From positions 35,392,213 to 35,456,212 of the forward strand of contig OZ234493.1 of NCBI GenBank assembly GCA_965153455.1: DNA of 64,000 bases, in the 5' to 3' direction. This stretch comes from Sphagnum compactum. Its lineage: Eukaryota. Below, one piece after another: positions 6,998-50,900 of the stretch (positions within the stretch are counted from its first letter, which is position 1; each line of letters opens with the position of its first letter). The notes beneath the pieces are model-generated. The model was not told where the DNA came from and ran no database searches. It saw only the letters and a program-made list of their open reading frames with translations. Position numbers and translations under genes: made by a program.

Positions 6998-7334
6998 CTT
7001 GGTCTGGCTGCTATTCACATGTTCAGTTGTGATTTGTTTGCCCCATAGTTCCACTTGGTCTGGCTGCTATTCACATGTTCAGTTGTGATTTGTTTGCCCA
7101 AAGTTCCACTTGGTCTGGCTGCTATTCACATGTTCAGTTGTGATTTGTTTGCCCCATAGTTCCACTTGGTCTGGCTGCAATTCACATGTTCAGTTGTGAT
7201 TTGTTTGCCCCATAGTTCCACTTGGTCTGGCTGCAATTCACATGTTCAGTTGTGATTTGTTTGCCCCAAAGTTCCACTTGGTCTGGCTGCTATTCACATG
7301 TTCAGTTGTGATTTGTTTGCCCCATAGTTCCACT
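6998..7334. repeat. Minisatellite, 6 x 56 bp
   Basis: Units start at 6998, 7054, 7109, 7165, 7221 and 7277 (CTTGGTCTGGCTGCTATTCACATGTTCAGTTGTGATTTGTTTGCCCCATAGTTCCA), near-identical, no spacers. Confidence 0.97.
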
Positions 7335-7419
7335 CTCGAATCATAAGTGCATGTACCAAGTAAGCTTACCTTGTTGTGAAATTTGGCACAACAAGTTTTG
7401 AGGCGTTTTAAGTTTTATC

Positions 7420-7762
7420 CAGTGTTGGGCAGTTCTTTGAATTTTTAAAGAACCACCAGTTCGGGTTCTTTAAATTTAGCAGAACCAAAGAACTGCTGGT
7501 TTCACTTCTTTCAAACAATTTCCAAATCAAAGAACCGGTGGTCATGGTTATTTCAAAAACCTCGCGGAACTGGCAGTTTTCATGAAAGAAGTGGTGATTC
7601 TTTGGCTGGTTCTTTGACTCTTTCAGATTTGTAGAGAAGAGAATCCTGGTTACATGCCAATATTGGTTCTTTGATTTTTAATAACCAGGAGGTAAGTGTC
7701 TATGCCCAGGTTGATAACCGGAGGGTATCTCTGTCCCTGATTGTGAGAACTGCCCAACACTA
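7420..7762. mobile_element. hAT-like MITE
   Basis: Perfect 16-bp IR AGTGTTGGGCAGTTCT (7421-7436 / 7746-7761). 8-bp flanks GTTTTATC/GTTTTGAC match at 6 of 8. GGTTCT/AGAACC-rich interior; related starts near 15447 and 38828. Confidence 0.75.
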
Positions 7763-10515: not shown

Positions 10516-13500
10516 TTAATGCCTCCAGTCTTTGCTGCCATTGTCTTGAAGCTCTGTGGATCCCTGGTTCAAGTCCTTCAGCATCTCCACCACTTGTTGC
10601 ATTGTTGGTCTGTTTGCAGGGGAATTTTGTGCACACATCGTTGCTGCCTGCCATATATGTGCATAATTACTTAGGCACAATTTGTAAGCTACAAAGCAAT
10701 GTGCCACAAAATTTACCTGGCAACATATCAACCTGCCTAACAAGCAAAGACAAAGATTTTCCCACAACTGGGAAAGTGAGTTCAGTGTAAGGTAAAGCAC
10801 AAGGGTGAGGGCGTTACTGAAATATGGGCCCATGCGAGGTGGCAGTGAAGTGCTGCCCAATTTCAGTAATGCCCTTGTATGCATGCTTTACCAAGTGTAA
10901 AGATCAACCTTGCATTTTGTTTTTTAATTTTTTTTCCCATCAGGTATCACAGGAAAAGAAGACAACAGGCTTTACCAAATTGGGAATGCCTGCAGGAGCA
11001 GAACTTTCTGTTTTGGAAAAGCCCGGTGGGATTTTTTACGCTCTGCAAGGTGCTCTCTAGATACACTAGAGAAATGAGAGGAGGTCTTTATTCTACCTGT
11101 ACCACCCTGGTCAATTCATACTCATGGAATTCGCCGCACAGCTTTGGATCAGCTAAGTCATGAAAGTTTCCTTGCAAGACCAAGGGGCCAGCCCACTCCA
11201 CAATTGTCCGCTTCGTGGCCCCTATCCGTTCAATTGGCTTCCTCCCACTGATGAGCTCCAGTAGCAGTATTCCAAAGCTGTACACATCGCACATCTCAGA
11301 AACTTTTCCCCACATGGCATACTCTGGTGCTAAGTATCCGAGTGTACCCTTCACTCGTGTTGTTACATGTGTTGCACCCTCTGGAATTAGCTTTGCAAAT
11401 CCAAAATCCGCCAACTGGGCCTCAAAATTCTCATCCAAGAGAACGTTGCTGGCCTTGATGTCCCGGTGAATAATGTGGGGTTTTGCATAGTGGTGTAAGT
11501 AACTGTACAGAGACACCAGACAAAAACAATTAACCATTTTTTGCTTGTCACCCACATGCTAGCTTCTCATTTTACATCAACAGGTAGCTGGTATTGTAGC
11601 GTTTACAAAAAGCTTGTAAACCCTAAGACCCATTTCATCAATTGGTGAATGTCTCTTGAATCCAGAACATCAGGCCTGCTTTTGCAGTTCTTTGACGCTG
11701 CCCAGGCACACTTCAGTGAGTTTCAGTTGGTTGCAATTCAGGGAGTGAAATCTATTGCATTTCCAGAAGCAGACAAAAGACTCAGTCCTGATGTTGGCCA
11801 TCCAGCAGTTGAGATACAGAAGACAGGGATTAGTACTTACGCAAGGCCTTCAGCAGAACCAGTGGCGATTTTCATTCTCCGTTGCCAATTGAGGGCAGAC
11901 TCTGATGAGAGTTCGCCATGCAAATGGGATAGCAAACTGAGCTTGGGCATGTAGTCGTACACAATCAAGCGCTCCTGGCCCTCCGCACAGTAACCTCTCA
12001 GGCTTAACAAGTTTTTGTGTCGAACACGCCCCAGAATTTCAACTTCTACTGCAAACTCCATCTCTGCCTTAGTGCTCCACACTTTCAACCTTTTCACTGC
12101 AATCTGCTTCCCCATATCACCCAGGGTCTCTCATTTCAGCTCCAGAGAAGCAAATTGATGATACCTTGCAAAATACAGTCAAACGGAATTGCACACAAAT
12201 AAGACACTGCAATTTCCCCTCAAGAAAGCACTGGTAGGTAGGTAGTCACATGCAATGCGCTAGGTGATTGAGAAAGTCCAGAAAGTAGCAAACAAAACCC
12301 AATCTCACCATAACAACAACAATGCAGGTGCCCACTTTAGGTCCAAACCTAGTACCATCCTGAAGGCTAGGAACTGACTCATGTGCTGAAGATGATGAGG
12401 TTCTGTAGAGAAGGCAACATAATCAGTCAAACAGGCATATTCTAACAGAGTCTGCAAGCTGCAAAGGGGGAAAAGAGGAGCATGTGGTACACTAGAGTGT
12501 GGGATTAACAGGCCATGACATGACTCCATACTTGGTCTCCATTCGGTAGTTGGCCCCAGTAAACTCTGCCAAAGCCACCTTCCCCTATCTTGTTGTCGTA
12601 GTTGAAACTGCTTGTAGCTGTATGCAATTCTCTTAATGAAAATATGCGCCATGTACCACGACCATGACCACCACCACCACCACCACTTTTGTTGTTATCC
12701 ACCAGCCTGCACTCACCAATGACATCATAAAGCTCAAAACATCATTCACATATTTTTTCCATCCAACACATAATATCTGATGATGTCAAGAGTCTGCCTT
12801 TGAGCATCTCCATGGGCACTGAGTAGTGAAATCTTGGATGAGGTACAGGAGTCAAATCCAGTGGATTCACTGGAAAGACTGCAGTGACTCTGAAAAAATG
12901 CACAGCTTTCAGAGCACTGGAGGAGCCCTGGACCAGTCTAATAGACACAGTCCAACCGTATTTATTGACTGCTCCCTGTTTCTGATTGGCTAGATAGTTT
13001 GATTGGTCCAAGTGGGTTGCTATTAGTAGTCTCCCACCTAGTTGTATTCCCAGTTTCAGTTTCATGGGTGTGGTTGGAAAAAAGAAAGTAACTAAAACTT
13101 GGATGTGAGCAACATTTTTGCAGGGTCACATAACAAGCACTGCTGGAGATGCTCTTAGATCATCAAATGCTGCCCTTGAGATTGCCAAAAGCTGAGCCTG
13201 CCTGAACTATACCCAGCTTGACATCGCCTTCCCACATGGCTGCCCAACCCTACTTCCCATCATGAGTTTGGATGTGTCATTGGACAATGGAGGAGGAAGA
13301 AGAAGAGCAGCCCGGATTCAATCCTGTAATACTTCGGTGTAGCTTCATCCCAGTCTTTGTTTTCACATGATCCTGGCGAGGCCACCTTCACCACTGCTAG
13401 AGATTTTCAACAAAGTAGTAGGTAGTACTGAAGAAGTCCAAGAAAGAGGGAGGGAAGAAACAACTCACATTTCTTCACTTGCGCGCCCCCTGCAGCACCA

Positions 13501-13518
13501 TTTTGCAAGCAATGCCAT
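10516..13518 (-). CDS. Receptor-like cytoplasmic kinase, PTI1-like/At3g15890-type, 341 aa; exons 13469-13518, 12532-12706, 11841-12103, 11097-11502, 10516-10647
   Basis: Five exons joined by GT..AG introns in consistent phase (50+175+263+406+132=1026 nt). Protein: MALLAKWCCRGRASEEMLVDNNKSGGGGGGHGRGTWRIFSLRELHTATSSFNYDNKIGEGGFG..IAVKRLK..HRDIKASN..DFG..GTLGYLAPEY..DVYSFG..RPTMQQVVEML..WRH*. All catalytic motifs are intact; no ectodomain or TM segment. Exon 1 is the least certain. Confidence 0.92.
12802..13154 (-). mobile_element. PIF/Harbinger (Tourist-like) MITE in kinase intron 1
   Basis: TIR GAGCATCTCCA..TGGAGATGCTC with flanks TTT/TTA. Interior is the reverse-complement homolog of 37706-38042. 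Confidence 0.8.
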
Positions 13519-14579
13519 AATTAATCCTTGCAGGAGCTGATCACAGCTACTGATTCTCTCTCTCTCTCTCCTCCGCCTTGTTTCCCCTAAAATCTCAAGC
13601 TGATCTGAATATCTCACCAGCTGCTGTCCTCCCTCGACTACCGGCTAGTTCCCACTCGCCCCGTCTGTTGTACGTCCAGTAGCTGCTGCTTCTTCTTAAG
13701 CTTCAAGTTGAGAAGCTGCAACATGAGCCGCAGCTGCTGACGTTATTCTCAAACTCATGAGCTGCAGTACTACTAGTGGGAAAAAACCCCATAGCTTTCT
13801 ACACACTATGTGCGGATCGAAAACCTGCTGGCTGCAGACACCCTCGATCTGCATACATAGTTAGATGCTAGTGTCAGGCAGCTGAGCTACCTGGTAGTAC
13901 TAAGCTGCAGGCATATAATAAGCAGCAGCAGCCAGCACTGTACATAAACATAGCTGAGCCAGACCTAGACAAGACGTCCCTGGCAGGCAGACAGGCAGCA
14001 AACTCTTTCTATTTTCTCCTGCTGATCCCGCACGGACCTTCAGCCAGACAGAAGAAACTCTCCGCAGCTACAGCAGCAAAAGAAAAGCCCACTCCAGACG
14101 TACGTGACGACGCTAACAAGTCCCGTCGCAACACGCAAAACACATACACGACACTCCTCACAGTCTACACACTGCACACATTCCCTCTGTGTGCGTGTGT
14201 GTGCAGGCCAGCGTGAAAGCAAGCGGCAGCGCACAGCAGCGCAGTAGCATGAGGCCGGACAGCAACGTAGTAAGTTTTCCCTTTGGCTCCCTTTGGTACC
14301 ATAGCTAACCATTGTGGTGGTTTAGTGCTATCGTTATTATGCCCTAGTAGTTTTGCCTTGGTTCAAACCAGCACCCACTTTGGTACCATGGTAAAATTTG
14401 CAAAATCCATTTAAATTATTGCTAAATATTGCAGATATGCTACCCCTTTAGACTACATCAGGGTCTCCCAGTTCAAATCTAACCTTTTTTGGGCTTCATT
14501 TGGCCTCTAAGAGGCCTTGCTCAAAATGGTGAAGGTATCAACATGGGTGCTGGTTCACCCTGGCCGGCAGTTTGGAGTC

Positions 14580-27837: not shown

Positions 27838-29690
27838 TAAGACCTTGATTGGTGACAGGGTTGTTAAATGATTAGTACAAGCAATGGCGACTAAACAATA
27901 TATCAATGAAGGACTACATTTGTAATCATGTTACATATATATATATTATGTTTTTTGGACTCTAATGTGAATGTTGATGTTTTAGCAACATTAATACAAT
28001 TAAAGTGCAACAATACCAATTTGATATATTAATTGTAAGTTTAACATTCTTGAACATGCACTTGCTAGTCACATGGAAGAGAATGAATCATCAATGACGA
28101 AGATGATTTTTAGTGATCATATCCAATTGCCCATTTGATGGCATGGATTATTTTTTATCACACAAGGATCAAGCCACAAAGCAATACCAATCATCGATGG
28201 ATGAAAGGGATCATTTTTCAATCACCCATGGATGGCAAAGATAATTTTCAAAAACCCAAAAATATGTTTTAGTAAAGAAACAACGATATAGATCATTTCC
28301 AATTGCCCATGGACGGCATGGATTATTTTAGGTTGCCCATACATGGTGGACAATTTTGGTAGCCTACCTCCGCCCCCGTCCCTCCCCCAAATTGTGTTGA
28401 TCGTTTTCAGTTGCTTAGGATGACAAAGCCCATATAGTAATAATAAGACAAAAAAAACCCTAATGGTGTAGATCATTTGAGGTCACCTATAAGAGGCACA
28501 ATATTTATCAATAGGAAGGATTGACCTAATTTTTTTGGTTGAGTTTGACAAAGGTTTGAGGTTTAAAAAATAAAGATTAGAAATTCATAGGTTTAATTCA
28601 ATCTCTTAAGAACTTTCTAATTTCATTTATTGCATTCTAACACCCATTTCACATTAGATAAAGAAGTGTTTAAAGATCGTGTGTGAGTAAGTGGGTTGTT
28701 CAGTTCTTGGTATGTGAAAAGACCATGTTGGTCTTGATTTCATTGAATTAGAAGTTTGGAACATTTGAAATGTCTAGGATGTGCCAAGGTGTTCAATCCA
28801 CTATTTGTTTTTTTGAAAAATTGCCATATTTAATGTAAATTTACCCAATTTCCATTTAGTTGAAATCTAAACTTACCAAGACAATGAAAAGAGAAACAAA
28901 ATATGGATGAATGAGGTGGTATCAACTATCAATCAATTGGATAACAATAACAATGACAAGAATGCAGGAACAAGTGGAGAAAGAGTGCGAAGTACATTAG
29001 ACATTTCAATTTCGACCTCCCGCTTTATTGTGACGTGTAGTGTCGTGACATACAGTGTCATAAGGGTGTAAATCCATAGTAAAATCTACTAAACAAAAAG
29101 ATTAAAACCAATCAAAGGTAGAAACTAATCAACCAAAAAGAGATGCATGCACATATACATACAATGCATAGGAGGAGGCTGAGATGAAAATCTCATGTAT
29201 TAAAGTTGCAAAGAAGGAAAAAAAAAAATGTATGTAAATGGTGGCCGTGTAATGGCCGCCATGAGCATCTAAAAATCCAATTTAACTATGGAGGAAACTC
29301 TCCCTGACAAAGGAATTTTAGAAGAAGGGAATAACTTGGCTTTTTATACAGCTGCCAACAAGCTGAAACCGTAAATACTTAATAGCATACAGTAACCTAA
29401 GAACGTACATTAACTTTAAGTTCGTACGTTAATCCTAAAAACTTACATTAACCCTAAAAGGCATGAGTGACATGCCCGTAATTACCCGTCATGTATGAGG
29501 CCATGCATACGGGCATGACAGCTGTCGTGACGTGTAGTGTCGTGACGTACGATGTCGTAAGGGTGTAAATCCATAGTAAATTCTACTAAACACAAAGATT
29601 AAAACTAGTCAAAGGTAGAAACTAATCAACCAAAAAGAGATGCACGCACATATAATGCATAAAAAGAGGTTTAGATGAAATTCTCATGTA

Positions 29691-29700
29691 TCCCCCCCCT
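29691..29700 (-). promoter_or_regulatory. Polypurine tract (AGGGGGGGGA)
   Basis: Lies just downstream of pol and abuts the start of repeat A' in sense orientation. Confidence 0.8.
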
Positions 29701-29741
29701 AGAGCTGAGCCGAGAAAAGCATGGCATGGTCTGAGTAGAAA

Positions 29742-32700
29742 TCAAGGTTTTATAGGAGAACATGATGAACAGTACCACATGCCGGCGGGAACTTGAATGA
29801 GCTCCGGCTTGAGGCAGAATAGATGGTATCCACCATTACAATTATCGCAAAGCAACATCTGATCAGCATCGTCTATCCTTTGACATACCTAACATGGGTA
29901 GTCAAGTGGAGGAATCCAAGTTGACGTGATGATGGTAGGATCTAAGTTCGGCAGGTGGCAAGGTGCAAAAATTTTGGAGTGACCCTGAATTGTGCGTTCG
30001 TCAGTTCCTTGTAACTCCAACACACCTAAAGGCCTGATTGCCTTAATCCTCGAGATAGTGCGACCAGAAAAAATGTCTAGGGTATCATTCGGTTGCCGCT
30101 GGAGATACACAAAATCATGAACATCAAATTGTCTCACCTTAGGTTTGTAACTGTACCTCGTGTGTGTGCATATCGTAAGGTGTCTCGATGCTGTGCAATG
30201 GACAAGTTCTCCATGGCTATGGGCATAACCGTCCTAAATAGAGCAGCCTTCTCTGCAATGATCTTAGCCCAAGCGGCCGAGGAGTCCAAGTCCACAACCT
30301 GGTCCATTTGAGTAGCAATGGAAGAGGGTGGAATAGGATGTCTTCCAAAAAGTAGAAAGTAAGTAGAGAAATGAGACAAAGAGGCGTGTTTGGACATCCT
30401 GTAACCCATGGCGATGTAAGGTAGGGCCAGGTCCCAATCCTCTTTGTTCCTAATGAGGCAAATCTTCCGAAATCCCTTCTTGCATGTCTAAACCATCCTT
30501 TCTGCAAGGCCATCAGCTTAGGGATGATCCCTTGAAATCCGGCGATGGTCAATGAGAGTATGGTTAAATAGGTCTTGGAATTCTCCTCTGAATTCTGATC
30601 CTTGATTAGTAAGGCACTCAGCACAAGTCCCAAACCTACTTAGGACTTGTTGTATGAAAGCCTGGCTGGTGTTGTGTGATGATTTGTCCGGCAGCGCAAC
30701 AAGCTCGACCCACTTTGAAAAATGCTCAATCATAATCATGATGTAGACATTACCCTTGGAGGTCTGTGGTAACTCTCCAGCTAAATCACATGACCATCGA
30801 TAGAACATGCCCTGAATAGGGAGTGGAAAAAGCGTGAGCTGTCAAGAGGAGAAGGAAGTTCTCACTCTATCACATTGTTCACACTTAGCAATGGTGTCTC
30901 GGACTTGAGCATACATACCTTTCCAATGGTAATGAGGAGCAAGAAGGCTATAAGTAGGCTTAACTCCAAAGTGTCCAAGCTTCGAGTGTACCTTCTGAAT
31001 AAAACCAGACCGTTCATGTGGTGGAAAAACCATTCTGTTGCCTTGTGGTAAGCATCGGACGAGGTGATTGTCCCTCCTTGAGTAGCGTTTGGACTGTTGT
31101 TGTATGCGATTTCGATGACTTGATGTAACTTGGGAAGGGTATTCTTCATTCTGAAGAAACCTCAGAGTGTTCAAGTCTTCCCATATATCCAAAATGGGAT
31201 GCTCAACCAGGTTACATTGCAGTAGTGCAAGATAACTAGATGCATAAGATATATGTATTGTTGGAATCTGGTCGAAGTCTTGCTTGGTTTCTGAGAAATC
31301 TTCAGAGGTAGTGACGGGCCTCCGTGACATGTTATCCGTGTTCTGATGTGTAATGCTAGGTCGGTGAATAACCTTGAACTCATATTCCTGAAGCATAAGC
31401 GCCCAACGAGCTAACTTACTAGTAAGCTTGTCGTTGGTCATCAACCACTTGATAGGCTGGTGGTCGGTATATAAAATGAACTCAATGCCATAAAGATACG
31501 GCCTGAAATGTATGACGGCCCATACAACAACAAGACACTCCCCCTCGTATGAAAAGTAGCTACTCTCAACCTTGTTCTTGCTTTAGGATGCATAGGCAAT
31601 AACATATTCCTTGCCTTCCTCATCAAATTGGCCAAAAATAACACTAATACCCACAGCATTCCAGTTAGTGTGTAGAATGAAGACCTTGCTAAAATTAAGT
31701 CTTCTCAAAATGGGGAACTCTGAAAGCTTTTCCTTGAGTGTTTAAAAAGCTTCCTGAGCCTCTTCACTCCATGTCCAAGCAACATCCTTTTTTAACAATG
31801 CATAGAGAAGATGAACAATAGTACTGAAGTTTCGGACATAAATCATGTAGTAATTACACAGTCCGATGAAGCTCTTCAAAGTGTGAACATCAATAGGATT
31901 GGGCATTTCCAAAATGGCTATTACTTTGGCCCAATGAGCCATAACACCATTTGGCAAAATTCTATGTCTAAGGTAGACTATTGAGGTGACAACAAACTCA
32001 CACTTTTTAGGATCGATCTTCATATTGACTTTGTGGAGCCTTTTGAATAACTCTTCAAGATGAGCCAAGTGTTGCAGGAGTCCCTTGCTATGCACTAAGA
32101 TTGTCATCTATGTAGCACTTTAGGAAATCTGCCCCTTCGAGAACCTGGTCCATGAATTGTTGAAAGACTGGTGCATTCTTCAATCAAAAAGGCATCACAA
32201 GCCATTCCCACAACTTGTTGCTTCCATGGAATGTCGTTTTCTTGCGATCCTTCGCATCGAACACAATCTGGTTGAAGCCTTGCTTCAGTTCCATAATTGT
32301 GAAGAATGTTTGAGTCTCTAATGCTATCAAACAGTTCTTCAGGGAGGGCATGGGGTATCCGTCCTGAGGTGTAACCAGGTTCAAAGGCCTATAATCCCCG
32401 CACATCCTTTTCTTAGTCCATAATCCAGCTGAATTCTTCTTTGTTGGCATTATTGTAGCAGCTACAAAATTAGAATTTGATGGCTGAATGAGACCAGCCT
32501 CATGGAGCTCTTTGCATCTTTCATCTACTAGTTCCCACTCATGCTTGCTCAACTTATGCCTCCTCTGATAGATGGGTGTCTCATCTATAAGGTCTATAGA
32601 GAACTGCATGGTCTTACACCTACCTAAGTCTTTCATTGAGAATGCAAACACATTCTCATACTTAATTAACAAGTCTGTGACCTGGTTTCTCTCCTTCTTG

Positions 32701-33149
32701 GTGAGTTGGTTCCCCATAACGAAAGGGTAGTTGGAAACACATGGAATGGAGTTGGAAAGTGTGTTTGAAAAACCTGGTGTATTGGGTTTTCCACTATCCA
32801 ACTGCGCAAATTCGTAGAAGGTTGTAATTGTTTCTCCAGAAGCTGATGTGCCTCCAGGTGTATCAAAAACAACTTGAGTCAAAGTACATGGTACCTCCTC
32901 CCCCCCAACACTAAGAGTGAAGTGTAGAGTGTTGAAGATAGGCAAGTGTACTTGGTCGGGGTGCCATGTAGTCGCATCGCCAGAACTGCAAGTTGATTGA
33001 ATTAGTGCTGGTGTTGTGTACATTTGAAAGAATACACAAGTTACGAATAACCATGTAAGGGAATTCAGGTCCATGCATCTTCCCAATAGAAGGTTACGCT
33101 CCAACCTAGTCACCTTGGTGTGACTAGTAGTGCTAGTTTGGAACCCCAT
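29742..33149 (-). pseudogene. pol: Gypsy pol (RT, RNase H, integrase, C-terminal PHD finger), disrupted by frameshifts and stops
   Basis: RT: KRMCGDYRPLN, KTTF, VMPF, CYIDD (~32104-32118). RNase H: YTDHQPIKWL..KLARWALMLQEY. Integrase HHCC: HSKLGH..CEQC. Integrase core: WSCDLAG..EHFSKW..TNQGSEF..DGLAER. The coding region is split over at least 7 ORF fragments. Confidence 0.95.
29760..29894 (-). other. PHD finger (C4HC3) at the integrase C-terminus
   Basis: Manual translation gives C*VCQRIDDADQMLLCDNCNGGYHLFCLKPELIQVPAGMWYCSSC, in frame with ORF 29889-30137. The single TAG is plausibly a decayed CAG. Confidence 0.9.
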
Positions 33150-33874
33150 AGCCCTTTTTCTTTATTCTGGGCTTGGTTCATTCCAAGTGGCTGAAGCATG
33201 ATGATACACCAGGCCTGGTCCATTTCCCTAAAAGGCGTGTGTTCCTGGGAAGGAGACAAAGGTGGGCCAAACACCTCTTGGTTTTCCTATTGTGTTCGCA
33301 GGAAACCAAGAAGGTTTCTCTTGCCTTGTAACTGGTTGGCAGGAGCTTTGATCATCCAATATGTGAGAAACCTGCAGGTTGGGGTCTATGCTGCAAGTCG
33401 CTACGAATGTCGCGTTGCAGGTCGCGGCGTTGCAGGTCGTGACACTGCGGCTTGCGATGGACATTGCGTTGTAGGTCATGGCTTGTGATGGACGCCGCAT
33501 TGTAGGTCGCGGCTTGTCAATGGATGTGACACTGCAGGTCGTGCCGTTGCAGCAATGGCGGACGCAGCGTTGCAGTTCGCCAAGAAGCAATTTTGTCCTC
33601 CTATGTCTCTGGGCGAGAGAGAGAGAGAAAAAGAGAGAGAGAGCTTTGAAACTTGCTGGACGATACGTCATTCCCCCGTTTGGTTTCGCTCTTCCCAACT
33701 CCTCCGATCCCGGCTCTGTTGGTTGGCAGAGGTGTAATAGCACAAGCTCCTTCTAGCAGCTGCAACACCAGCAGTAACAACAACACGAGCAACAACAACA
33801 TCTGCAGCAAAAAGAAACAAAAAAACTCACAGCTAAGAAAATTTGCCGCTTTCAACATTAAGCAATAGAGAGTA

Positions 33875-33888
33875 GTTTTTCTAGAATT
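33875..33888 (-). promoter_or_regulatory. Putative self-priming PBS (AATTCTAGAAAAAC)
   Basis: Located at the inner edge of B'. It is the perfect 14-nt reverse complement of 34002-34015. No TGG tRNA-type PBS is present. Confidence 0.7.
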
Positions 33889-34040
33889 AAAATTGCAAAG
33901 AAGGAAAGAAAAGAAGTGTATGTAAACGGTGGCCGTGTAATGGCCGTCGTGAGCATTTAGAAATCCAATTTGACTATGGAGGAAACTCTCATTGACAAAA
34001 GAATTCTAGAAAAACCAACAACAGAAGGGAATAACTTGGC

Positions 34041-34048
34041 TTTTTATA
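34041..34048 (-). promoter_or_regulatory. TATA box of retroelement 5' repeat (TATAAAAA)
   Basis: About 33 nt upstream of the putative self-primer/TSS at 34015; conserved in copy B (29341-29348). Confidence 0.6.
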
Positions 34049-34093
34049 CAGCTGCCAACAAGCTAAAACCCTAAACACTTAATAGCATATAGT

Positions 34094-34197
34094 AACCTAA
34101 GAACGTACATTAACCCTAAGAACGTACATTAATCCTAAAAGCATACATTAACCCTAAGAACGTACATTAATCCTAAAAGCGTACATTAACCCTAAAA
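34094..34197. repeat. 19-bp tandem repeat in retroelement repeat B' (5 units; 3 units in B)
   Basis: AACCCTAAGAACGTACATT / AATCCTAAAAGCGTACATT units. Confidence 0.9.
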
Positions 34198-35732
34198 GGC
34201 ATGAGTGGCATGCCCGTAACTACCCGTCATGTATGAGGCCATGCATATGGGCATGACAGCTTGTTGCTTTTTCCATTGTTTTGTTACTTGGACCTGTGTT
34301 TGAGTTTTTGTAATGTGAACAAAACCCAAATGGGAATTTGGATGAAGAGATGACTTAATGAATGAAGTGATGCGGGGATTTGGATTAGCAGAAAATGCCA
34401 AAAGAAGGGATGGTTGGTAATCATGAAACTTAGAGGTTGTTGTTATTCCTTAGCTGTTTTTTAAAAAAAAATTTGTGATTGCTTGTTGTTTGCAAGTGAT
34501 GAGTTCTGTTTTGCATTCTTCATGGTTTGGATGGTGTTTGGCATTGATCGATTTGGTGTTTTGTGTTATTTTTGGATGTGGTGCGTTATGAAGGGTGGAC
34601 ATTGCCATATAAGGAGGAACTTCTAATGTTGAGAAGCCAAGTTTTTGGGTTAGACATTTTGTGTTTTTAGGAATGTATCTTTGAAGCTTTCAAGTGGGGT
34701 GCGTGGGTCTTTGTGTCTTCTAGTTTTGAAGAAGCATCAAGTCAAGTAGTCTTGGTGAGGGATGAATGCCCTAACAGCTATGGGAGCTTTTTAGTAGAGG
34801 GCTTTTGTATCTCTACTACGCCATAGCTTTCTCTTTAGGGACCAATTAAGGACAGTGATGAAGATCTAAAAGGGTTTCAAGAGCAGTCTTCATAACAATT
34901 TGGTTTGTGGTGAGGAGAAATGTCATGTTATTTGGAATATAGTGGGTTATGTGTTGATGGGAAGGAGTACCCACAATTGTGGGAGCTTTGAAAGGAATTA
35001 ATGTGTGACTAGACAACCTTGGGGTTATCAAGACAAATCGGTAGTGGGAAGTCTAGGTTTTCATTTTCTTTTTGTCCAACTCCTGGGATCAATCTGTGGG
35101 AGTTGGGGTGGATTTCATATTCTGAGATTGTGAGCTGGGAGTGTGAATTGCCATGACATGACTAATGGGCTCAAAAGAGAGAAGCCGAAGTGAATTTGTT
35201 CCCTTATGATCTGTAGATTAGTGTTGTTAGTATAGTAGATGCTAATAAATATAGTGTTGTTCTGCTCCTATGTATTTCTATAAAGTTCCATAGAAATCAG
35301 TCTGTCTCACAATTTCATCACAGTAGGTGTTACATTAGGCCTGTCCCACAATTTCATCTGGTGACAGTTTAACCATATTTTCCATCATCCACCCTGGCAT
35401 TCCAATTCAATTTCTCGTCTTTGCTACCATGGCCTTTTGACATCTGGCTGCCTCACCATAGTTTGCGTTGTCTCCTTGCTTATCTCCACACTCCACCAAA
35501 GACACAAAAAGATGAAAAAGTTGTGGAAGTTGAATTTTGAGATTGAGAATAAATGAATGTAGGTTAGGAACGTGGAAAATTTATAAGAGTTGAATCTAAG
35601 AAACAAGATGAATGAATTGCAAGCCGAAGAAGATGAAATTTATGGACAAATCTAGGAAACATAGGTAAAGCCAGGATGATGAAGCACAGGGATGCCAGAA
35701 CATTTTATGACCAAATGGGCAGAGAAAAGAAG

Positions 35733-35851
35733 CAATAGTTGGCCTGCAATAAGGACCCATTACTGTTTTAATGTCTTCTGGGCACAAGGCACCAATAGTC
35801 GGCCTGGAATAAGGACCCAATGCCAATTTAATGTCTTGGGGGCACAAGCAC
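35733..35851. repeat. 60-bp tandem duplication
   Basis: CAATAGTYGGCCTGSAATAAGGACCCA..TTTAATGTCTT..GGGCACAAG occurs twice. Confidence 0.8.
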
Positions 35852-44000: not shown

Positions 44001-46910
44001 TTTTGTCCTTCATATGTTTATCAATTTAGTTATATTTACAACATTAGAAACCAAAAAGACATGAAAACCTTGAATGAAAGCACAAATTGAAAATAAAAAC
44101 AAAAAAATAAAACTCTAAACAATATAGAAAAAAAGAAAATTAAAAAAAAAGGAAGGCAAAAGAATTGATTTCACGTAAGATATAAAATCTCAGTGAGTCA
44201 TCAATTCCATACCATAATTTCATGAAAATGAAAACTTCCTCCAATGAGTTACTCCAACCCCTTGGTTATTTTCGTTTAGCAATTTTTTTTTCAAAATAAA
44301 AAAGTTAGAAGTTAGACTATCAATAATTAATAATAATTAATTGTCGGCATCTAAGGATGTAGTGAACCATGATCATCATTTTTTTTCATTTAGGTTTGTG
44401 GCATATGAACATCAGGCAAAGACTTGATTTACCATTAGGCCAAATAATCTAACATTAGTAGGCCAATTCTTTGAAGGTTGCAATGACATCATCCATAAGG
44501 CAATCAATGCGAGGTCTATGTAAAACACTTCATAATATCAATCTTTCAATTTTTAAAGAAACACTTTCACAAGATCTCAAAATTAACCCAAAGGCACCTA
44601 CACCAAAGAATAGTTTTTTAATCAACACTTTTGAATTTAAAACACCCCTTCATAAGAAAATTCATCATGCAAAAATAACCAAATTTCAAATTAAGACCAA
44701 CAAGAAACGTTAGTTGACAAATTGGTTGTGTTAACATTTTCCATTTTTATTGAATAAAAAGAACATCAAACTTTTTAATATTTTTTAGAAAATCAATATC
44801 AGAAGCACAAAAAATAGCTTCATTGCTTGTTATTGTCACCCAATGGTACTTCAAGTTGGTAAATATGTTAAAAAGAACTATCGATTTTCACAACTTATTG
44901 ATTCCGCTTCAATCTATTAACCCTTCTAATACCTATAATCAAGGATTCGATGTTGTGAATCACAATTTAAAAAATAGAAAAAAAAACTAATAATAAAATA
45001 ATGAAATGTGAACTTATTAGATGAAATAGTAAAATAAAAAATTACAAAAAAAACAACAAAAAAAAACAATATGATGAAAAAATAAAATAACAAATTTTTA
45101 CTTGGTTGGAGGGCATAGACTACTAGATAATTTTTTGCAACTTGAAAAATAATAAAAAACAACATATCCACAAGCCCCACTATAATGTCTTCATTTTCAG
45201 ACAAATTTGCAATGGACTTTTCTATATCATAACTTCAAAACTTTCTCCATTTGTTCAACACATTTTTCACCTTCAACTATGCATGTTTGTTGGCTTTTCA
45301 TTCTCCTTTGTTGACATTATCTAACTGTTTCATCAATTTCAATTCAAGAATTCAAAATTAAAAAAAACATCAATAGTAGGAAAGTCGTAGTTAAAGACAG
45401 TAACAATAGTGTGATTTGACGTAGAAATAGAAAAGACATTGAGAAAGAAATTCATTACCCAAACCATCAAAGTTTCTAATAGTCTAAGGCATTGAATGGT
45501 TGTAATAGTTTGGAAAAAAAAAGGATCAACATTTGTTTTAGAAAATTGAGTAGATTAACAAACTTAGGCAGTTGTAAGTAAATGTCAATCCATCATCAGA
45601 CCCCAAGAGACCACCACCTATAGAATTACAAAGAAGTGTGCATGGTGTAATAGGGACAAATCCAAAAACCTTGACATCAAAGAAAGGGTTGGGTTGGGTA
45701 GATGATAATGCATGGATAACATGATCTTGGATAATTGAATTTAAACAAGGCCCACTATAGAGCTTCTTGGAAGTTGGTTCATCTACATGCAACATTGATA
45801 AATCGAAGATTCTACAAAACAAAAATATATATATTTACAAGTTACAATGTCTTGGAAAAGAAAAGGAAAAAACAATGTTGCCTCATGCTAGCATAGCCAT
45901 AGCAAGAAAAAACAATGATATTGCAATAACAATATGATGTAAACAACAAAAAAAGATTGTCAAAGACGATGGTAGCTTTGATTATATGACACACTTACAA
46001 AAGAAACATAATGATTAATAAACATTGTAAGAAACAAGAAAAAAAAGACACTCAAATGGAGAATGCAAAACCCTATTTCATAAGCACACAAAATTTAAAA
46101 ATCAAAAGATTGTTAAAATCTTTTGACAACAACAAAAAGGAACTTGGAAGAAGATAGTTGGAGATGATGACTTCAACAAAGCCATGTATTTGCAAAAGTA
46201 AACATGGAACAAAAGAAATTTAAAATCTAAATATCATCACAATTTTCCAACAACACAAAAAAACAAAACATTGCTAACACAACCTTAGCAAGAGATGATG
46301 ACAATATTGAAAAAATAGGAATAAGGAGAACACAAAAGAAAATTGTTAGAGATGGTAAAGCTTTGACCATGCACTTGCAAAACAAACATAAAAAACAAAA
46401 CAACAAAAACAAGCACATGTCAAATCGCTACAAGAAACATGAAAAAGAATAAAAAGCTTTATTACACAATGCATAAACACAAAAACAAAGATTAAAAAAA
46501 AATCATGATGATATTTCAACAATGCTGAAAAAGAAGAATTTAATCAAAGATGATGGTGACTTTTCAATGTCAATGGCAAAAAAAACAAAACAAAACAAAA
46601 CGAACAACAATTAGCAACCCAAAAAAAAAATAGAGGAAAGAGAGGGGAAAAGAGGGGAATGGAGAAAGGGAAGAAGCATAATAAGCATAAGAAAGGAGTA
46701 GGAGAGGAAGACGCATGAGAGAAGGAGAAAAGAAAGAAGACGAGGAAGATGGGAAAAAGGAGAAGAAGATGGAAGCCACTCCAAAATTTTTTAAAGACTA
46801 ACCTAAACATCTCCACCGTTTGCTAACCATCACCATTTGTTTTAGGGTAAGCTTTAGGGCGAAAAGAGAGTGAAAGGAAGTTGTAAAAAAAAACCGAAAG
46901 TTTCTTTACA

Positions 46911-47025
46911 TAGGTGAAGTGTCTGAGAATAGACCCTTCCAGATTTTCTGCGGCTCCCCTTGGCCTACCAGCCTTGGGACCTTGACCTCAAATCTGAAAG
47001 GGTCTATTCTCAGACCCTTCTCCTA
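46911..47025. mobile_element. 115-bp hairpin / TA-flanked MITE-like element
   Basis: 36-bp arms (46911-46946 vs 46990-47025) with 3 mismatches, 43-nt spacer, TA at both ends. Confidence 0.7.
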
Positions 47026-47705
47026 TACAGATAGGGTTTTTAACTAAACAGTAGGAAAATGCGATTCCTGATTTCGATCCTTGAACCGCGTGACTAACTT
47101 AGCCGGTGAGTAGTACCTACGTAACCAGCCCGCTTGTTTACGGAACGCTTATGAAACCGACTGCCCGGTCTATAACGGCCCACGCCAGAGCTTAGAAGTG
47201 CAGGCGGTTAAGGAAGGGCTAGGTCGGGCGCCCACGCTTGTAAGTAGCCGTGGCGGAAAGTAACCGCCGTACGTCCAAACCGCATGTGAGACGACAGTGC
47301 TACCGACCGCACTTCACACGACAGCCGGCGACCGCGAGACTTGGGATTATTTTGGAACCGTCCGGCGGACACGTGAGTGAGCGACCGATGGACGGTGGCC
47401 GGCAAGCGTCAATAAATGGGAGCTTCTCGTCTTCCTGCAGTATCGTTCGCCTCGTACCCCTCGTCTTCTCGCAATCTCCGCTCTGTTGCAGACTGCTCTT
47501 GCAAAGGCTCTCTCTCGGTGCTATCCGCTTCTTGCCCTGCTCAAGCTTTGCGCCCAGTTTTCGGTGAAGAAGAAGAAGCGTTTTCTTTGGTTTTCTCACA
47601 GTGTGGTAAAGCGCCGCCTGTGTGTGTGTGTGTGTGTGCTCATTTTAGTCATCTGTTTCCAAGAACCCTCTCTCTCAGGGTCCCAGAAAGCTCTCGCAAG
47701 AAGAA

Positions 47706-47909
47706 ATGGCCTCCAAGACTAGCGCAGTCGCAGCCGTAATGGTGATGATGGCCATTGCGCTGATCATGCAGTGCAATGTGGCGATGGCGGCGGTGGATCC
47801 GCCCAGCCCTGCGCCGGCTTCAGGAAGCGCGTCCAGCTATCAGGCTTCTTTGGTGGCCGGATTGGTCGTAAGTGCGTTTTCTTTCGTCGTCGGATTCGCT
47901 TGGTTATAA
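47706..47909 (+). CDS. Arabinogalactan peptide (AG-peptide), secreted and probably GPI-anchored
   Basis: 67-aa ORF with an N-terminal signal peptide (MASKTSAVAAVMVMMAIALIMQCNVAMA), a short PPSPAPAS glycomodule core, a small-residue omega region (ASGS) and a hydrophobic C-terminal tail. It sits in a GC-rich island with AGAAATGG start context. Confidence 0.88.
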   Translation: MASKTSAVAAVMVMMAIALIMQCNVAMAAVDPPSPAPASGSASSYQASLVAGLVVSAFSFVVGFAWL

Positions 47910-50900
47910 GATGCAGATGGTTGTGAGGCTTTGACAATGGAGATTGCATACAGTTTGGAACTGATGCGGTCGAAGCAGAAGGTGATGATGGAAGTGGTTG
48001 TGCAAAGGGAGTTTGAGGTTGAGATTCGAGAAGCATTGGGGGAGTTTGTTTCTTTTGTTTGTTATTTCATATACTGGCGACAGGTGAGAACGAGAGCTAC
48101 GACCGCCACGGGCTTGTTTGCCCTTGCTTGATGTCGAATACAGAAGGGGGAAAGCAGAGGGGAAGTTACGAGAAGGGTGTTTTTAGATCTGTTCGGAAGA
48201 CGGTCGGCTTTGGAATAAGGTGCTTGGCCTGCTGGCTGGTTCTTGGACTCTGCGTTTTCATTTATCTGCGTCTTCTTCAACGGAGACAAGGACGATTACA
48301 ACGTACACTTGGAACAAGTTCGCTCTGTTCTTCTTTAGAGGTTGCTTTCTCGGGATGCCTTCACGCGGACGGATTGTTACACTGAGCTTCTACTGCGACT
48401 GTAGTAGAAGCCTGAAAGTTTAAGTGTCGGTTTCTGATCTCGTTCATGGCAGTCAGTTTGCGTAGTCGGTAGATCTACAGTATTCCATTCATTGTGTACA
48501 GATTTTTGTGAGCAAGAGGTATACATCGTGCACCACAATGTGCTTGTGATAACACTTTTAATAAGCCATTCTTTTGCAGCCATGTATTGAACGGCTGACC
48601 TCCCCCCCCTTTACGTTTCATGAATGCACATGCTTCTTTTCTTCTCTTCACCTTGTGCTTTCTGTGTGGTGAATGTTGCTGTTATCAGAATATGTGCAAA
48701 CTGTAACTGTCCCCGACTTGTGCTTGTAGGGACCAGGAGATAGACTATCGTTCCTGTGTCCCATTTTTTTTGGCCAGAAGTCTTGACATCGATCGGGATT
48801 GGCCTCATGAGAAGACTCGGCATAAATTCTTGATCGGCATCTTTCCTTTGTGATCTCACCTCAGTGAAATAGTTTTTCTCTCTTTATGTTAGTTACATAT
48901 TAACATGGACATGTTAGTATGGACATTGTCGTCGAGTCCACGGACTTGTCTTCTTGTATTGCGTTAATAGCATCTTACAGGAATACTACAATGGCGGCTT
49001 AGGAAAGACAGGCCTATGCTGTTCTGGTTCGAGAGGGGAAGAAAAGCTACAAGCTCCTCTTGATCAGGTACTTTCTTGAATCACAACTTTGATGTATCTC
49101 CTTTAATGGTAAAGAAAATGGGTGTCACAGAACTGCTTTGCTGTGCTCGCAGGCTATGCTTGTTATTCTGTAGATTTATTTTTTCAGTTTTACAAAAGCG
49201 GCATGGAAAAAGCATCCTTTACATGTACTCCTTTCATTGAAGCATATTCAAGAACTTTGTTCAGTCTCGTTCAACAGAGTCTAACAGTTTTGTTGACAGT
49301 TGGGCATGGCAGGAAATATTAGCAGCAGCTGCTGCTGAAACGGGAAAATCCCATACAGCAGAGACTTTCTTGCTACCAGTCACGTTCTTTCGTTCTCCAA
49401 TATTTCTATCATTGGGCAACTCATGATTAATGCTTGGCAGCTTGACTAGAGAAATAGGGTGATTGGGTTTTATTTTCTTCTTCTCTTGATCGCTACTCCA
49501 GATGACACACCTAGAGATTCTCAACCTGAGGTAATTCTTTTCCTTTCCATTGTGGGTATTATCGCCAGGGGAGAAACTTGTCTACTGCTCTGACTATCAT
49601 CACATCATCACTTGAAAATGTGAAAGTCGGCCACCAACTGCAATGTTTCTGCCCCAATGAAGCACTCAAATTGATCTGTAGCATATGTTCCAATGTCCCA
49701 TCTCTTCATTTAGTTGTTCAGCTGCCTTCAGTTACTCCATGCACGATTGTAAAGCCAAAAAGGTCATCACTCAAAAAACGTGCCAAATTACAAAGTAAAT
49801 TTGCCAATGTGGTAGGATAAGTTAAACTTGCAACGTTTTGTCAGAAACCGAGATATCTGTTTCTTCCAAAAGCGGCCACTGCTCTTTCAAAAGCTAGACC
49901 TTCTTCCTCACGAAAGTTGCTGACCACCCCTGCATTCAAGCTCCAATTGCAACTTTGCAAAGATAGAAACAATGATAGTAACTCAAAACACAAATATGCT
50001 AGCAGGAACAGGAAACGCAAGCAGAAGTATACAGAATCGGAAGAACAATTCACTCGACTCAACATCAAACACCTCCAAATCCATCCACAGGACCTTTTCA
50101 ATATGCACTAAGATGCAGCATCTTGCAAACTGTGCCAGGGTATTATATGATATATGGGAATCAGTCCCCATTTGTGGGCGCATTGGGTTTGTTGTTAGAT
50201 ATGTTTTGAAGGAAACACAAATGCAGTAGTTTGGTCATCACCCACATGAAAATATGAAATTTGATGACACCCAACAATTCAGCTCCAAAACTGAGTCAGT
50301 GAGTGGTCTGTATCTTACACAGTTGGTGAAATGGCTGACAATTAGAAAAGACCACCTGCACTGCTGCTTATCATTGGAGAGGCGTGAGCTCGTGGTTTTG
50401 ATAAAAGCCGACATCAACAGAAATCCGTTGTCCATGTGCATTGTGCAGTGCCCAGCTGTATTAAATTCCACTTTAAATAAGTGTACCCCATTCCAGAAAA
50501 ATAGGTTGGTGAAGTACGAAGCCAGATTGTATGAGTCCCCCAACCCCATGTTACTGAGTCTCCAACTCCATCTGGCAAGAATCCAGCGTGTACACAGTCA
50601 ACGTGAAGTACCCCTTTAGAAATATGGTGATTTTCTAGGGTAAACTGGCCCATCACCGATTGCCTGCCTATGACCGAACACTTTGGCAGACCTGTTTCAA
50701 TTCTTCTCTGTTTTGAGTGATTTTAAATGTTATAGGAGCGCCTTCTCAAGCTCTACAAATCGTCTTTGAAATGCAAAGCCAAAGGAGCAGCTCAAAAAGA
50801 GCAGTAAAGAAAATACATTTTTTCAAATCGCCCAATGTTTTTTTTTCATTTTGACTCCTCCTACTTTTGAACCTCATAACTTTCTTATTTCTTGTTCGTT

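Follow-up and report, generated by a model that had tools for sequence, protein, structure and literature searches.

The locus studied here raises the question of how a Ty3/Gypsy-type retroelement with a DDE integrase came to be bounded by split direct repeats and not by two complete LTRs, and whether this arrangement belongs to a single copy or to a family. The window is the whole 64-kb stretch of DNA that was analysed. All positions refer to it, and the minus strand is the sense strand of the element.

Layout of the copy in the window

In sense orientation the copy reads TSD-B'-pol-PPT-A'-GC-B-A-TSD and consists of the following features.

34259..34262: upstream copy of the TSD, GCTT on the plus strand and AAGC in sense, matching 29022-29025
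33886..34258, minus strand: B', the 5' terminal repeat and 3' two-thirds of the RT-defined LTR, beginning with the integrase-type end TGTCATG
34041-34048: TATA box in B'
34002-34015: presumed transcript start and self-primer GTTTTTCTAGAATT in B'
33875..33885, minus strand: putative PBS TCTAGAAAAAC, directly after B'
33391..33732, minus strand: low-complexity filler of ~340 bp at the site of the internal deletion
29700..33390, minus strand: decayed pol remnant with the C-terminal end of DNMT, RT, RNase H, integrase (H2C2 and DDE core) and a C-terminal PHD finger, from Pfam, frame translations and tblastn with P0153 and P0154
near 32110: YIDD of RT
29760-29894, minus strand: PHD finger of the window copy
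29692..29699, minus strand: PPT (G8), directly upstream of A'
29523..29691, minus strand: A', the 5' third of the RT-defined LTR and start of U3, terminating in the integrase-type end CACGACA
29521..29522, minus strand: spacer of 2 nt (GC) that separates the inverted ends CACGACA and TGTCATG and forms the middle of the palindrome GACAGCTGTC
29201..29520, minus strand: B, the rest of the complete internal LTR, with the TATA-containing U3 part followed by R and U5
29199..29200, minus strand: B/A joint, U5 end to U3 start, with an AT overlap here ('-2' joint class)
29026..29200, minus strand: A, a terminal extra copy of the first LTR third, supplying the right-hand integrase end, decayed to CACAATA
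29022..29025: downstream copy of the TSD, GCTT on the plus strand

As a sense string, with slashes at the borders, the element is AAGC / TGTCATG..B'..TTTAAT / TCTAGAAAAAC..pol..G8 / ATACATG..A'..CACGACA GC TGTCATG..B..TTTA(AT)ACATG..A..CACAATA / AAGC. The repeats A (29026-29200) and A' (29523-29691) are 87.7% identical over 171 nt. Identity between B (29199-29522) and B' (33886-34258) is 79.7% in the gapped alignment and 87-92% in ungapped blocks. B' is longer by ~50 bp of a short tandem unit, and the self-primer arm of B has lost 12 nt compared with B'. The repeats, the 4-bp duplication (GCTT on the plus strand), the G8 tract and the palindrome at the A'/B junction were all present where the preliminary description had placed them. 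No other copy of A or B was found in the 64-kb window, in agreement with its statement that no A copy lies beyond 34258. The G+C content of the window is ~35%.

Coding content and decay

The reading frame of the window copy is interrupted by many stops and frameshifts. Pfam searches of the minus strand recovered RT_RNaseH (2.7e-19), Integrase_H2C2 (8e-15) and rve (2e-11), together with two weak pieces of RVT_1 under the Pfam cut-off. The element aligns to positions 1-458 and 5336-9666 of a 9.67-kb copy, L049, which was used as reference. About 4.9 kb of the full-length element is missing from the window copy, comprising gag, the protease and most of the DNMT domain. Frames were also broken in 12/12 full-length loci.

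The intact coding order of the family, gag(CCHC)-PR-DNMT-RT-RH-IN-PHD, was read from family proteins by Pfam and motif inspection. In the proteins P0153 and P0154, Pfam identified rve, Integrase_H2C2, PHD and DNA_methylase. P0153, which is 78% identical over 29% of the L049 query, matched PF00145 at 1.3e-06, above the Pfam cut-off, and its FGGxxxG, ECQ and ENT motifs are readable. This places a C5 methyltransferase within a Gypsy polyprotein, the mark of the Gypsy-DNMT3 group; the corresponding region is mostly deleted in the window copy. P0154 has readable HHCC and D,D,E integrase residues and a PHD finger scored at 4.7e-11 by Pfam, and the PHD pattern has survived intact in 19 of the 56 3' regions of the family. 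The window ORFs and the two proteins show the PR-RT-RNase H-integrase order, with HHCC and DDE, of Ty3/Gypsy elements. A tyrosine recombinase (Phage_integrase family) was absent from every Pfam scan of window and family sequences. No chromodomain was found in the window family, which has the PHD finger instead.

Recurrence of the layout in related loci

The family sample comprised 80 related loci from short-read metagenome assemblies, plus the window copy. In all 16 related copies with a 5' end, unique flank is followed by TGTCATG, the remainder of B and TCTAGAAAAAC (17/17 with the window), and an ordinary complete 5' LTR was found in none of them. The 45 distinct 3' ends comprised 22 in which A-NN-B-A borders the flank, 17 in which A alone does so, 3 that are rearranged and 3 cut by a contig end; since the assemblies are from short reads, some of the A-only ends may be collapsed A-B-A. 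L013 provides one more A-B-A 3' end outside this count.

Among the 13 copies with two ends, exact 4-bp TSDs were found in 7 (L044, L049, L051, L054, L063, L079 and the window), a TSD one transition off in 3 (L018, L066 and L070) and no TSD in 3 (L020, L053 and L080), where ends and TSDs of L020, L054, L079 and the window were read by eye and not by the automated end-finder. Seven or more exact matches would arise by chance with a probability of 2e-14. The layout recurs at independent places in related contigs and is beyond chance. Independent insertions sharing the layout and ends, with distinct 4-bp TSDs, had been set beforehand as the test of the preliminary description, and the related loci gave a positive result. 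Copies with two ordinary LTRs, which it had named as the sign of a mere rearrangement, did not appear (0/16 5' ends).

The spacer between CACGACA and TGTCATG is exactly 2 nt long in 24/24 copies, and its sequence is GC in 8, AC in 8, AT in 4, GT in 2 and AA in 2. That the spacer is palindromic (GC) in only 8/24 copies counts against the integration route proposed below.

The B/A joint is precise in 13/24 copies and carries indels in 11/24, compared with indels in 0/24 at A-NN-B (Fisher p = 2e-4). In L063 and L066 the joint has lost more sequence, and it varies among copies of one subfamily. Apart from AT, the end of B and the start of A show no homology. Because of the indels at this joint and their absence at A-NN-B, the B/A joint looks like end-joined cDNA termini. 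The mirror form, B/A-NN-B-internal-A, was present at 0/17 5' ends; equal production of both forms could be reconciled with this absence only by a much faster loss of the mirror form (P = 0.04 at 35% survival).

The A1 and A2 repeats of one copy were mutual nearest neighbours in 11/44 tests, against ~1 by chance, and B1 and B2 were nearest neighbours in 11/18 tests, against ~0.6 by chance. No alignment column separates the A1 set from the A2 set. Judged from these relationships among repeat sequences, the repeats are renewed at each insertion.

Borders of the LTR and priming

The G-run abuts ATACATGA in nearly all of 56 family 3' rows and in 24/24 A-NN-B-A rows, and the homology between 5' and 3' B extends precisely up to TCTAGAAAAAC and no further. 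The putative PBS and the AAT that closes B' (33886-33888) form the complement of the presumed transcript start. This complementarity is exact over 14 nt in the window copy; among 17 copies it is exact over 13-15 nt in 7/17 and extends over at least 10 nt in 9/17. The 5' self-primer arm lies 31-37 nt after TATA, and L079 carries matching changes on both arms. A transcript 5' end complementary to a PBS right after U5, as in Tf1/sushi elements, is therefore present. Priming is predicted to be Tf1-like and self-primed, and the positions of the transcript start, the poly(A) site and primer cleavage are likewise predictions. Self-priming has also been predicted for the plant Tcn1 and TAR lineages (PMC6317226). 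A tRNA-type PBS was considered as well; no TGG-type site was seen by eye after B', and the self-primer was preferred. No tRNA genes were found in the 64-kb window.

Because the PPT G-run abuts A and the self-priming PBS abuts B, ordinary reverse transcription would have to yield a cDNA with A-NN-B at both ends. By these borders, the LTR made by reverse transcription is A-NN-B. Two observations strengthen the earlier proposal that the RT-defined LTR is A-GC-B: the G-run at A is conserved, and the self-priming PBS lies exactly at the terminus of B. The family shares with Ty3/Gypsy elements the placement of a PBS behind the 5' repeat and of a PPT ahead of the 3' repeat, as well as a TSD in the 4-6 bp range. 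Two complete terminal LTRs with TG..CA ends are not among its features: the 5' end is B only in 17/17 copies, and the sole complete RT-defined LTR is internal. Its own termini (ATACATG... and ...CAAT) are not integrase-type ends, and the inverted integrase-type ends TGTCATG and CACGACA lie back to back within it, 2 nt apart. Two other definitions of the LTR were rejected. With an LTR of B only, the PPT would not be adjacent to its LTR, and the TSD encloses the terminal A. An LTR of B-A (TG..CA) with two deletions conflicts with the lack of A at all 16 other 5' ends and with B/internal and internal/A borders that are conserved to the base.

Relationship to known elements

A quick IQ-TREE analysis of 47 RT-RH-IN rows, midpoint-rooted only and with no named Tf1 or Tcn1 reference among the rows, placed the family among Gypsy sequences. 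All 23 rows that carry PHD, DNMT or both group together (SH-aLRT 100), and this clade includes P0154 and the K. nitens protein P0147, so that common descent with the K. nitens elements was recovered in the tree. Ten of 11 chromodomain rows form a clade that excludes the window family. The window family resembles Tf1/sushi elements in the predicted complementarity of the transcript start to a short PBS directly after U5, but in this quick tree it lies outside the chromodomain-bearing group, which includes fish sequences. It does not qualify as a chromovirus with a chromodomain of the Tf1/sushi/Tcn1 kind.

The preliminary description knew of no Gypsy family with such a layout. On this point it was anticipated: de Mendoza et al. 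2018 (PMC5890265) give, in their Fig. 4c legend, DIRS-type repeats with Gypsy domains for KnitGypsy-Dnmt3 of Klebsormidium nitens. That element also combines a pol of Gypsy type with a C5 DNA methyltransferase carried within the polyprotein (PMC5890265), and the DIRS-like X-coding-Y-X-Y order is found in the window family. It differs in its host, judging by the G+C content of the window and by the lack of a close named match to it, and in being only ~40% identical over the part compared. We found no account of its ends, TSDs, PBS/PPT or mechanism in the sections of PMC5890265 consulted, and among open-access papers this was the only description found of such a layout or mechanism. The layout is thus already noted, without explanation, in a related algal element, of which the window family is a relative, and the mechanism inferred below appears to be undescribed. 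No relative of the window family was found among IMG/VR viral contigs. We conclude with high confidence that the element in the window belongs to a Ty3/Gypsy-type family with a streptophyte host and that this copy is old, dead and internally deleted. The family falls in the Gypsy-DNMT3 group, and its integrated form is B-internal-A-NN-B/A with a 4-bp TSD, not LTR-internal-LTR.

PAT/Ngaro/TOC1-type elements have split direct repeats in the order X-ORFs-Y-X-Y, and DIRS-order tyrosine-recombinase elements are not known to make a TSD on integration. The window family shares this order, with an internal Y-X junction equal to the junction made by joining the element ends. It differs in having a DDE integrase in place of the tyrosine recombinase, 4-bp TSDs and inverted ends of the TG..CA type. 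For SymbioDIRS, too, the X-ORF-Y-X-Y order is stated (PMC5890265). SM-Tcn1, a canonical Ty3/Gypsy element of a non-seed plant, is described with two full 440-bp LTRs and TG..CA ends (PMC2864245). The window family agrees with it in the PR-RT-RH-IN order of pol, the PPT before the 3' repeat and the short TSD, but its TG..CA ends lie inside the RT-defined LTR and its 5' end has only part of the LTR.

Proposed integration route and alternatives

The TATA promoter and the presumed transcript start are located in B. The presumed transcript begins with 11-15 nt complementary to the site directly after the 5' B, as in Tf1-like self-priming, and reverse transcription would then give a cDNA with the LTR A-NN-B at both ends. 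The cDNA termini may be joined, U5 end to U3 start, to give the B/A joint. Host end joining would make this link, as it does in a 2-LTR circle, and could act ahead of integration or as a repair step in the course of it. At the upstream LTR the integrase would cleave the inverted pair on both strands, leaving recessed CA-3' ends with 2-nt overhangs, and insertion of those ends with a 4-bp stagger would yield B-internal-A-NN-B/A. This product would retain the promoter, PBS, PPT and a downstream R, so that its transcript could repeat the cycle. The self-consistent cycle proposed earlier would hold in this respect for the family layout but does not for the window copy, which is dead, lacks gag, PR and most of DNMT, and is not self-sufficient. 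The earlier model, in which the cDNA ends are ligated and the molecule is opened at the GC of the upstream LTR, fits the indel-prone B/A joint and is still a model. The A-only copies (B-internal-A) may have arisen by A x A recombination or by cutting at both LTRs; as they have no downstream R, they should be dead ends. A 2-LTR circle cut at either LTR should also give the mirror form, and since none was seen, the route needs an unexplained directionality.

Foamy-virus and HIV-1 integrases are reported to cut the palindromic LTR-LTR junction (PMC1180852, PMC1905944). There a DDE integrase acts on its own terminal sequences where they lie internally as an inverted pair, and so produces processed linear ends, which is the likeness to the route proposed here. 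In the retroviruses the palindrome is the U5/U3 circle junction and the pathway is at most accessory, whereas in the window family the inverted pair lies within each LTR, the U5/U3 joint is not palindromic and the layout suggests an obligatory cut.

That the layout is a one-off at the window locus, due to tandem insertion, unequal recombination of two ordinary elements or misassembly, would suit a single copy in the window that is internally rearranged by a 4.9-kb deletion. The identical order and ends with different TSDs at 22-23 other independent places, and the count of 0/16 for ordinary 5' LTRs, make it exceedingly improbable. Next to no credence can be given to a tyrosine-recombinase element (DIRS/Ngaro/PAT-type) or hybrid that integrates by closed-circle recombination: the repeat order is that of PAT/Ngaro, but the Pfam scans contain no tyrosine recombinase, an HHCC and DDE integrase is present, and the 4-bp TSDs, the TG..CA-type ends and the Gypsy placement in the RT-RH-IN tree all argue against it. 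Ginger/GingerRoot DNA transposons combine an integrase-like DDE enzyme with short inverted ends and a short TSD, and the composite might move as DNA in the style of a Ginger-type transposase. The integrase would then excise or copy TGTCATG...CACGACA units, and the repeat layout would be inherited and not rebuilt per cycle. The short inverted-repeat ends with 4-bp TSD are compatible with such movement, and B-internal-A copies resemble a TIR-bounded transposon. It is nevertheless very improbable, given that repeats within a copy are nearest relatives far above chance, that the A1 and A2 sets have no fixed differences, that the B/A joint differs between copies of one subfamily, and that the PPT and self-primer PBS are conserved exactly at the repeat borders. 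Ginger-type transposons are also not known to have an RT, PBS or PPT, in contrast to the window family, where the repeats appear renewed per insertion.

The B/A joint could also be made by the reverse transcriptase and not by ligation, through a template jump from the U5 end to the U3 start or through a DIRS/Ngaro-like bridge via the internal A-NN-B junction. The extra LTR part would lie on the right of the cDNA, the integrase would use the att half-sites nearest each end of a linear cDNA, and no circle would be involved. Such a joint would explain the one-sidedness (mirror forms 0/17), and the B-internal-A form (17/45 3' ends) would result by default when an ordinary two-LTR cDNA is nicked at its two internal sites. 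Reverse transcriptases also produce small losses and gains at jump points. Against it, the end of B and the start of A share nothing beyond AT, the larger joint deletions (L063 and L066) resemble end joining more, and we know of no step in Gypsy reverse transcription that yields such a product. We regard it as unlikely. The best explanation overall is probably a Gypsy-DNMT3 family with end-joined cDNA cut internally by the integrase. For the whole mechanistic chain, read from old and decayed genomic copies, we lean only modestly towards acceptance. A more far-reaching reading is that a Gypsy-DNMT3/PHD lineage of streptophytes moved its integrase recognition ends into the LTR interior. The linear cDNA would then be no substrate, and an end-joined form like a 2-LTR circle, opened by the integrase at the internal inverted site, would be obligatory. 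We put this forward tentatively and consider it somewhat more doubtful than probable.

Implications

In textbook LTR retrotransposons the cDNA is linear and its two LTR tips are the integrase substrate. In the present family reverse transcription places the LTR borders at the PPT and PBS, the integrase uses the TG..CA borders at the TSD, and the two sets are ~175 bp out of register across dozens of insertions. Annotation tools based on LTR pairs are expected to mis-call or miss such elements. If the route proposed here is correct, host end joining and internal cutting by the integrase would be normal steps of the cycle and not dead ends, and the family would offer a natural system for the old question of circular or end-joined retroelement DNA as an integration precursor. 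It would also explain how a Gypsy lineage copies the repeat layout of tyrosine-recombinase elements. Should the internal-end reading hold, the family would represent a natural, obligatory version of the long-abandoned retroviral 'circle junction' route and a case of DDE elements converging on the DIRS/Ngaro layout. Through the DNA methyltransferase and PHD finger that it carries, the family is linked to work on transposons with epigenetic domains.

Repeats and coding remnant of the window copy

The positions and order of the repeats in the preliminary description were recovered, and no further copies of A or B were found elsewhere within the 64-kb window. The repeats of the copy, whose sense strand is the minus strand, are as follows.

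29026-29200, minus strand: A, matches A'
29199-29522, minus strand: B, matches B'
29523-29691, minus strand: A' (inner A), matches A
33886-34258, minus strand: B' (5' terminal repeat), matches B

Read in sense, B' comes first, followed by decayed pol, a G8 tract, A', GC, B, and A. TGTCATG opens the unit and CACAATA closes it (CACGACA is the corresponding A' sequence), and AAGC flanks it on both sides. The palindrome GACAGCTGTC is contained in A'-GC-B. Pfam matches in pol were RNase H, integrase H2C2, and rve, together with two weak RT pieces. Stops and frameshifts are abundant throughout, and ∼4.9 kb is missing, as the copy aligns to 1-458 and 5336-9666 of the 9.67-kb copy at L049, a metagenome contig locus. 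B' is ∼50 bp longer than B, with a short tt(c)ttagggttaatgtacg-like tandem unit at 34100-34200; this microsatellite growth within the LTR is post-insertion. Two tandem 60-nt units with 80% identity lie at 35726-35845, just upstream of the element in plus-strand coordinates. Elsewhere in the window, an exon-sized protein kinase ORF (11091-11558, minus strand; Pkinase 6.8e-23) is presumably a host gene, and blocks of 40-46% G+C at 6000-14000 and 46000-50000 (background ∼30%) are probably genes or other repeats.

Layout and target sites at related loci

Relatives of the RNase H-integrase ORF numbered in the hundreds at 70-83% identity; of 662 candidates, 527 proteins had E <= 0.001. Scanning of metagenome contigs gave 543 encoding stretches; the best 80 of these were taken as loci, and A, B, and the internal part were placed on all 80 by BLAST. 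The 5' end was visible at 16 of these best 80 loci. At all 16, a distinct flank adjoined TGTCATG, followed by B and the internal part, which opens with TCTAGAAAAAC. Neither A upstream nor B-A-B before the internal part occurred at these 16 ends; copies with two ordinary LTRs, which the preliminary description would have taken to refute its reading, were not among them. The 56 3'-end rows collapsed to 45 distinct places. With NN for a 2-nt spacer (GC in the window copy), 22 of the 45 read internal part, G-run, A-NN-B-A, flank, and 17 read internal part, G-run, A, flank; three were rearranged after B, and three were cut by the contig end. One additional A-B-A, in L013, stands outside this count. 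There (2769-5516), a full A-B-A end directly adjoins the final ∼2 kb of the internal part of a second copy, corresponding to reference 7406-7592 and then 7749 onward, with its own A-B-A end. This arrangement is a nested or tandem insertion.

Both ends were present in 13 copies, including the window copy, and the boundaries of the target site duplication (TSD) were set by eye in four copies. An exact 4-bp TSD was found in 7/13 (L044, L049, L051, L054, L063, L079, and the window copy) and a TSD one transition off in 3/13 (L018, L066, and L070); it was absent in L020, L053, and L080. The probability of at least seven exact matches by chance is 2e-14. A 4-bp TSD flanks the unit. Because these 5' and 3' arrangements and ends recur at related metagenome loci, with distinct 4-bp TSDs, the split-repeat layout is a property of the family and not a one-off, which answers the earlier question about independent insertions.

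LTR borders and internal integrase-type ends

B contains a TATA box, and 31-37 nt further on lies AGTTTTTCTAGAATT, exactly complementary to AATTCTAGAAAAACT, a stretch that begins in the last bases of the 5' B and runs into the internal part. Exact pairing covers 13-15 nt in 7/17 copies and 10 nt or more in 9/17; the others have arms with mismatches. In L079 (∼2760-2900), a G to A change in the arm accompanies a C to T change in the primer-binding site (PBS) and the 13-nt pairing is kept, which is what copying of the PBS from the primer would produce. Elements of the Tf1 type, which self-prime with an 11-nt piece cleaved off the 5' end of their own transcript, have this same anatomy. Homology of the 5' B with the 3' B stops exactly before TCTAGAAAAAC. 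The self-primer complement and the limit of this homology place the RT-made LTR's right border at the end of B. Passages of PMC6317226 state self-priming for the plant elements Tcn1 and TAR. The G-run adjoins ATACATGA, with which the internal A begins, in 24/24 A-NN-B-A rows and in nearly all 56 3' rows, which puts the left border at the start of A. The proposal that the RT-made LTR is A-NN-B is thus backed at both borders, and promoter, self-primer PBS, and polypurine tract (PPT) define it. Its tips (ATACATG.. and ..CAAT) are neither TG..CA nor inverted.

TGTCATG and CACGACA, which adjoin the TSD, are imperfect inverted repeats of each other. Within A-NN-B they stand back to back as CACGACA/TGTCATG, exactly 2 nt apart in 24/24 copies (spacer GC in 8, AC in 8, AT in 4, GT in 2, and AA in 2). 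The sequence shows these integrase-type ends to be internal to the RT-made LTR. Since the TSD-adjoining ends lie back to back in A-NN-B, the integrated copy corresponds to a circularly permuted LTR-internal-LTR, with its opening at the upstream LTR's inverted pair.

B|A joins the U5 end to the U3 start with variable precision. The joint is exact (..AAT|ATACATG..) in 13/24 copies; in the other 11, 1 nt is missing in three, 2 nt in five, an extra base is present in one, and larger deletions occur in two (L063 and L066). The class lacking 2 nt, an AT overlap that includes the window copy, is found in both subfamilies and so arose more than once. No indels were found at the A-NN-B junction in 24 copies, compared with 11/24 at B|A (Fisher p = 2e-4). 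Such a variable joint is the look expected of ligated cDNA tips, not of a templated junction. At the rearranged places L033 (4839-5160) and L065/74/75, the break lies exactly at the 3' B end and is followed by inverted 5' internal sequence. The latter copy (L074 2527-6072/L075 6460-14338) is independent of L033, and in L075 an inverted A adjoins internal position ∼3748. Inversion, or aberrant joining of a free cDNA end, may account for these breaks; their position indicates that the U5 end is at some point a free end of DNA.

Origin of the permuted layout

Inheritance of the composite as DNA is countered by the similarity of repeats within copies. The two A repeats of one copy were nearest neighbors in 11/44 tests (chance ∼1), and the two B repeats in 11/18 (chance ∼0.6). 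Mean identity within versus between copies was 0.913 versus 0.876 for A and 0.889 versus 0.826 for B. Also against such inheritance, no alignment column separated the first from the second A set. The repeats are rebuilt at each insertion. In the proposed route, the host would join the cDNA tips, either into something like a 2-LTR circle or through gap repair during integration, and integrase would nick both strands at the upstream LTR's inverted pair and insert those ends. Foamy-virus and HIV-1 integrases are reported to cut the palindromic LTR-LTR junction (PMC1180852, PMC1905944), so the chemistry of an internal integrase cut has precedent. The product, B-internal-A-NN-B|A, would retain promoter, PBS, PPT, and downstream R and could therefore cycle. 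Copies of the form B-internal-A are without downstream R; A x A recombination, or cutting at both LTRs, may have produced them.

Random choice of LTR on a circle predicts a mirror form, which was found at 0/17 5' ends. If both forms were produced equally, this outcome would have P = 0.04 with 35% of mirror forms surviving and 0.17 with 20%; it agrees with equal production only given much faster loss of the mirror form, e.g. by recombination between the longer B repeats. As a guess at this one-sidedness, the downstream LTR might not yet be double-stranded when integrase binds; another guess is that reverse transcriptase itself makes the right-hand extension.

Coding content and relatives

Full copies are 9-10.5 kb long. 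All 12 long loci are decayed, with a longest open frame of 494 aa. Two intact family proteins were present in the protein collection, P0153 (1214 aa; gag-PR-DNMT part) and P0154 (929 aa; RT-RH-IN-PHD). Both come from public assemblies and are long and stop-free; young or active copies may therefore exist. P0153 carries two CCHC knuckles, an aspartic protease, and a C5 DNA methylase (PF00145, 1.3e-06) with legible FGG..G, ECQ, and ENT motifs. Its catalytic motif is E-C-Q, where DNMTs usually have P-C-Q. P0154 carries RT (YIDD), RNase H, an HHCC and D,D,E integrase, and a C-terminal PHD finger, whose pattern is undamaged in 19/56 family 3' regions. None of the Pfam scans revealed a tyrosine recombinase.

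The 'longer' protein search gave 166 proteins at E <= 0.001, with PF00145 and PF00628 on the top matches. Among named matches were proteins of Klebsormidium nitens, Closterium, and Marchantia. These relatives and the Atlas cluster point to a streptophyte host, and the K. nitens protein, at only ∼40% identity, is too distant for that host to be K. nitens. A quick tree was built from 47 RT-RH-IN rows; its 23 rows bearing PHD and/or DNMT formed one clade (SH-aLRT 100), containing P0154 and K. nitens P0147, apart from the clade with 10/11 chromodomain rows.

KnitGypsy-Dnmt3 was described by de Mendoza et al. 2018 (PMC5890265), where the Fig. 4c legend gives Gypsy domains with repeats arranged as in DIRS. 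A DIRS-like layout in a Gypsy is thus already in print, in one sentence. A 2026 preprint names 'streptophytes (Gypsy-DNMT3)', and the passages concerned do not discuss structure. In the literature searched (Repbase and supplements were outside its scope), no published account of internal inverted ends, self-primer, U5|U3 joint, or mechanism was found. The feature is real and the structural interpretation in the preliminary description is supported; the window family adds to a kind known but barely characterized.
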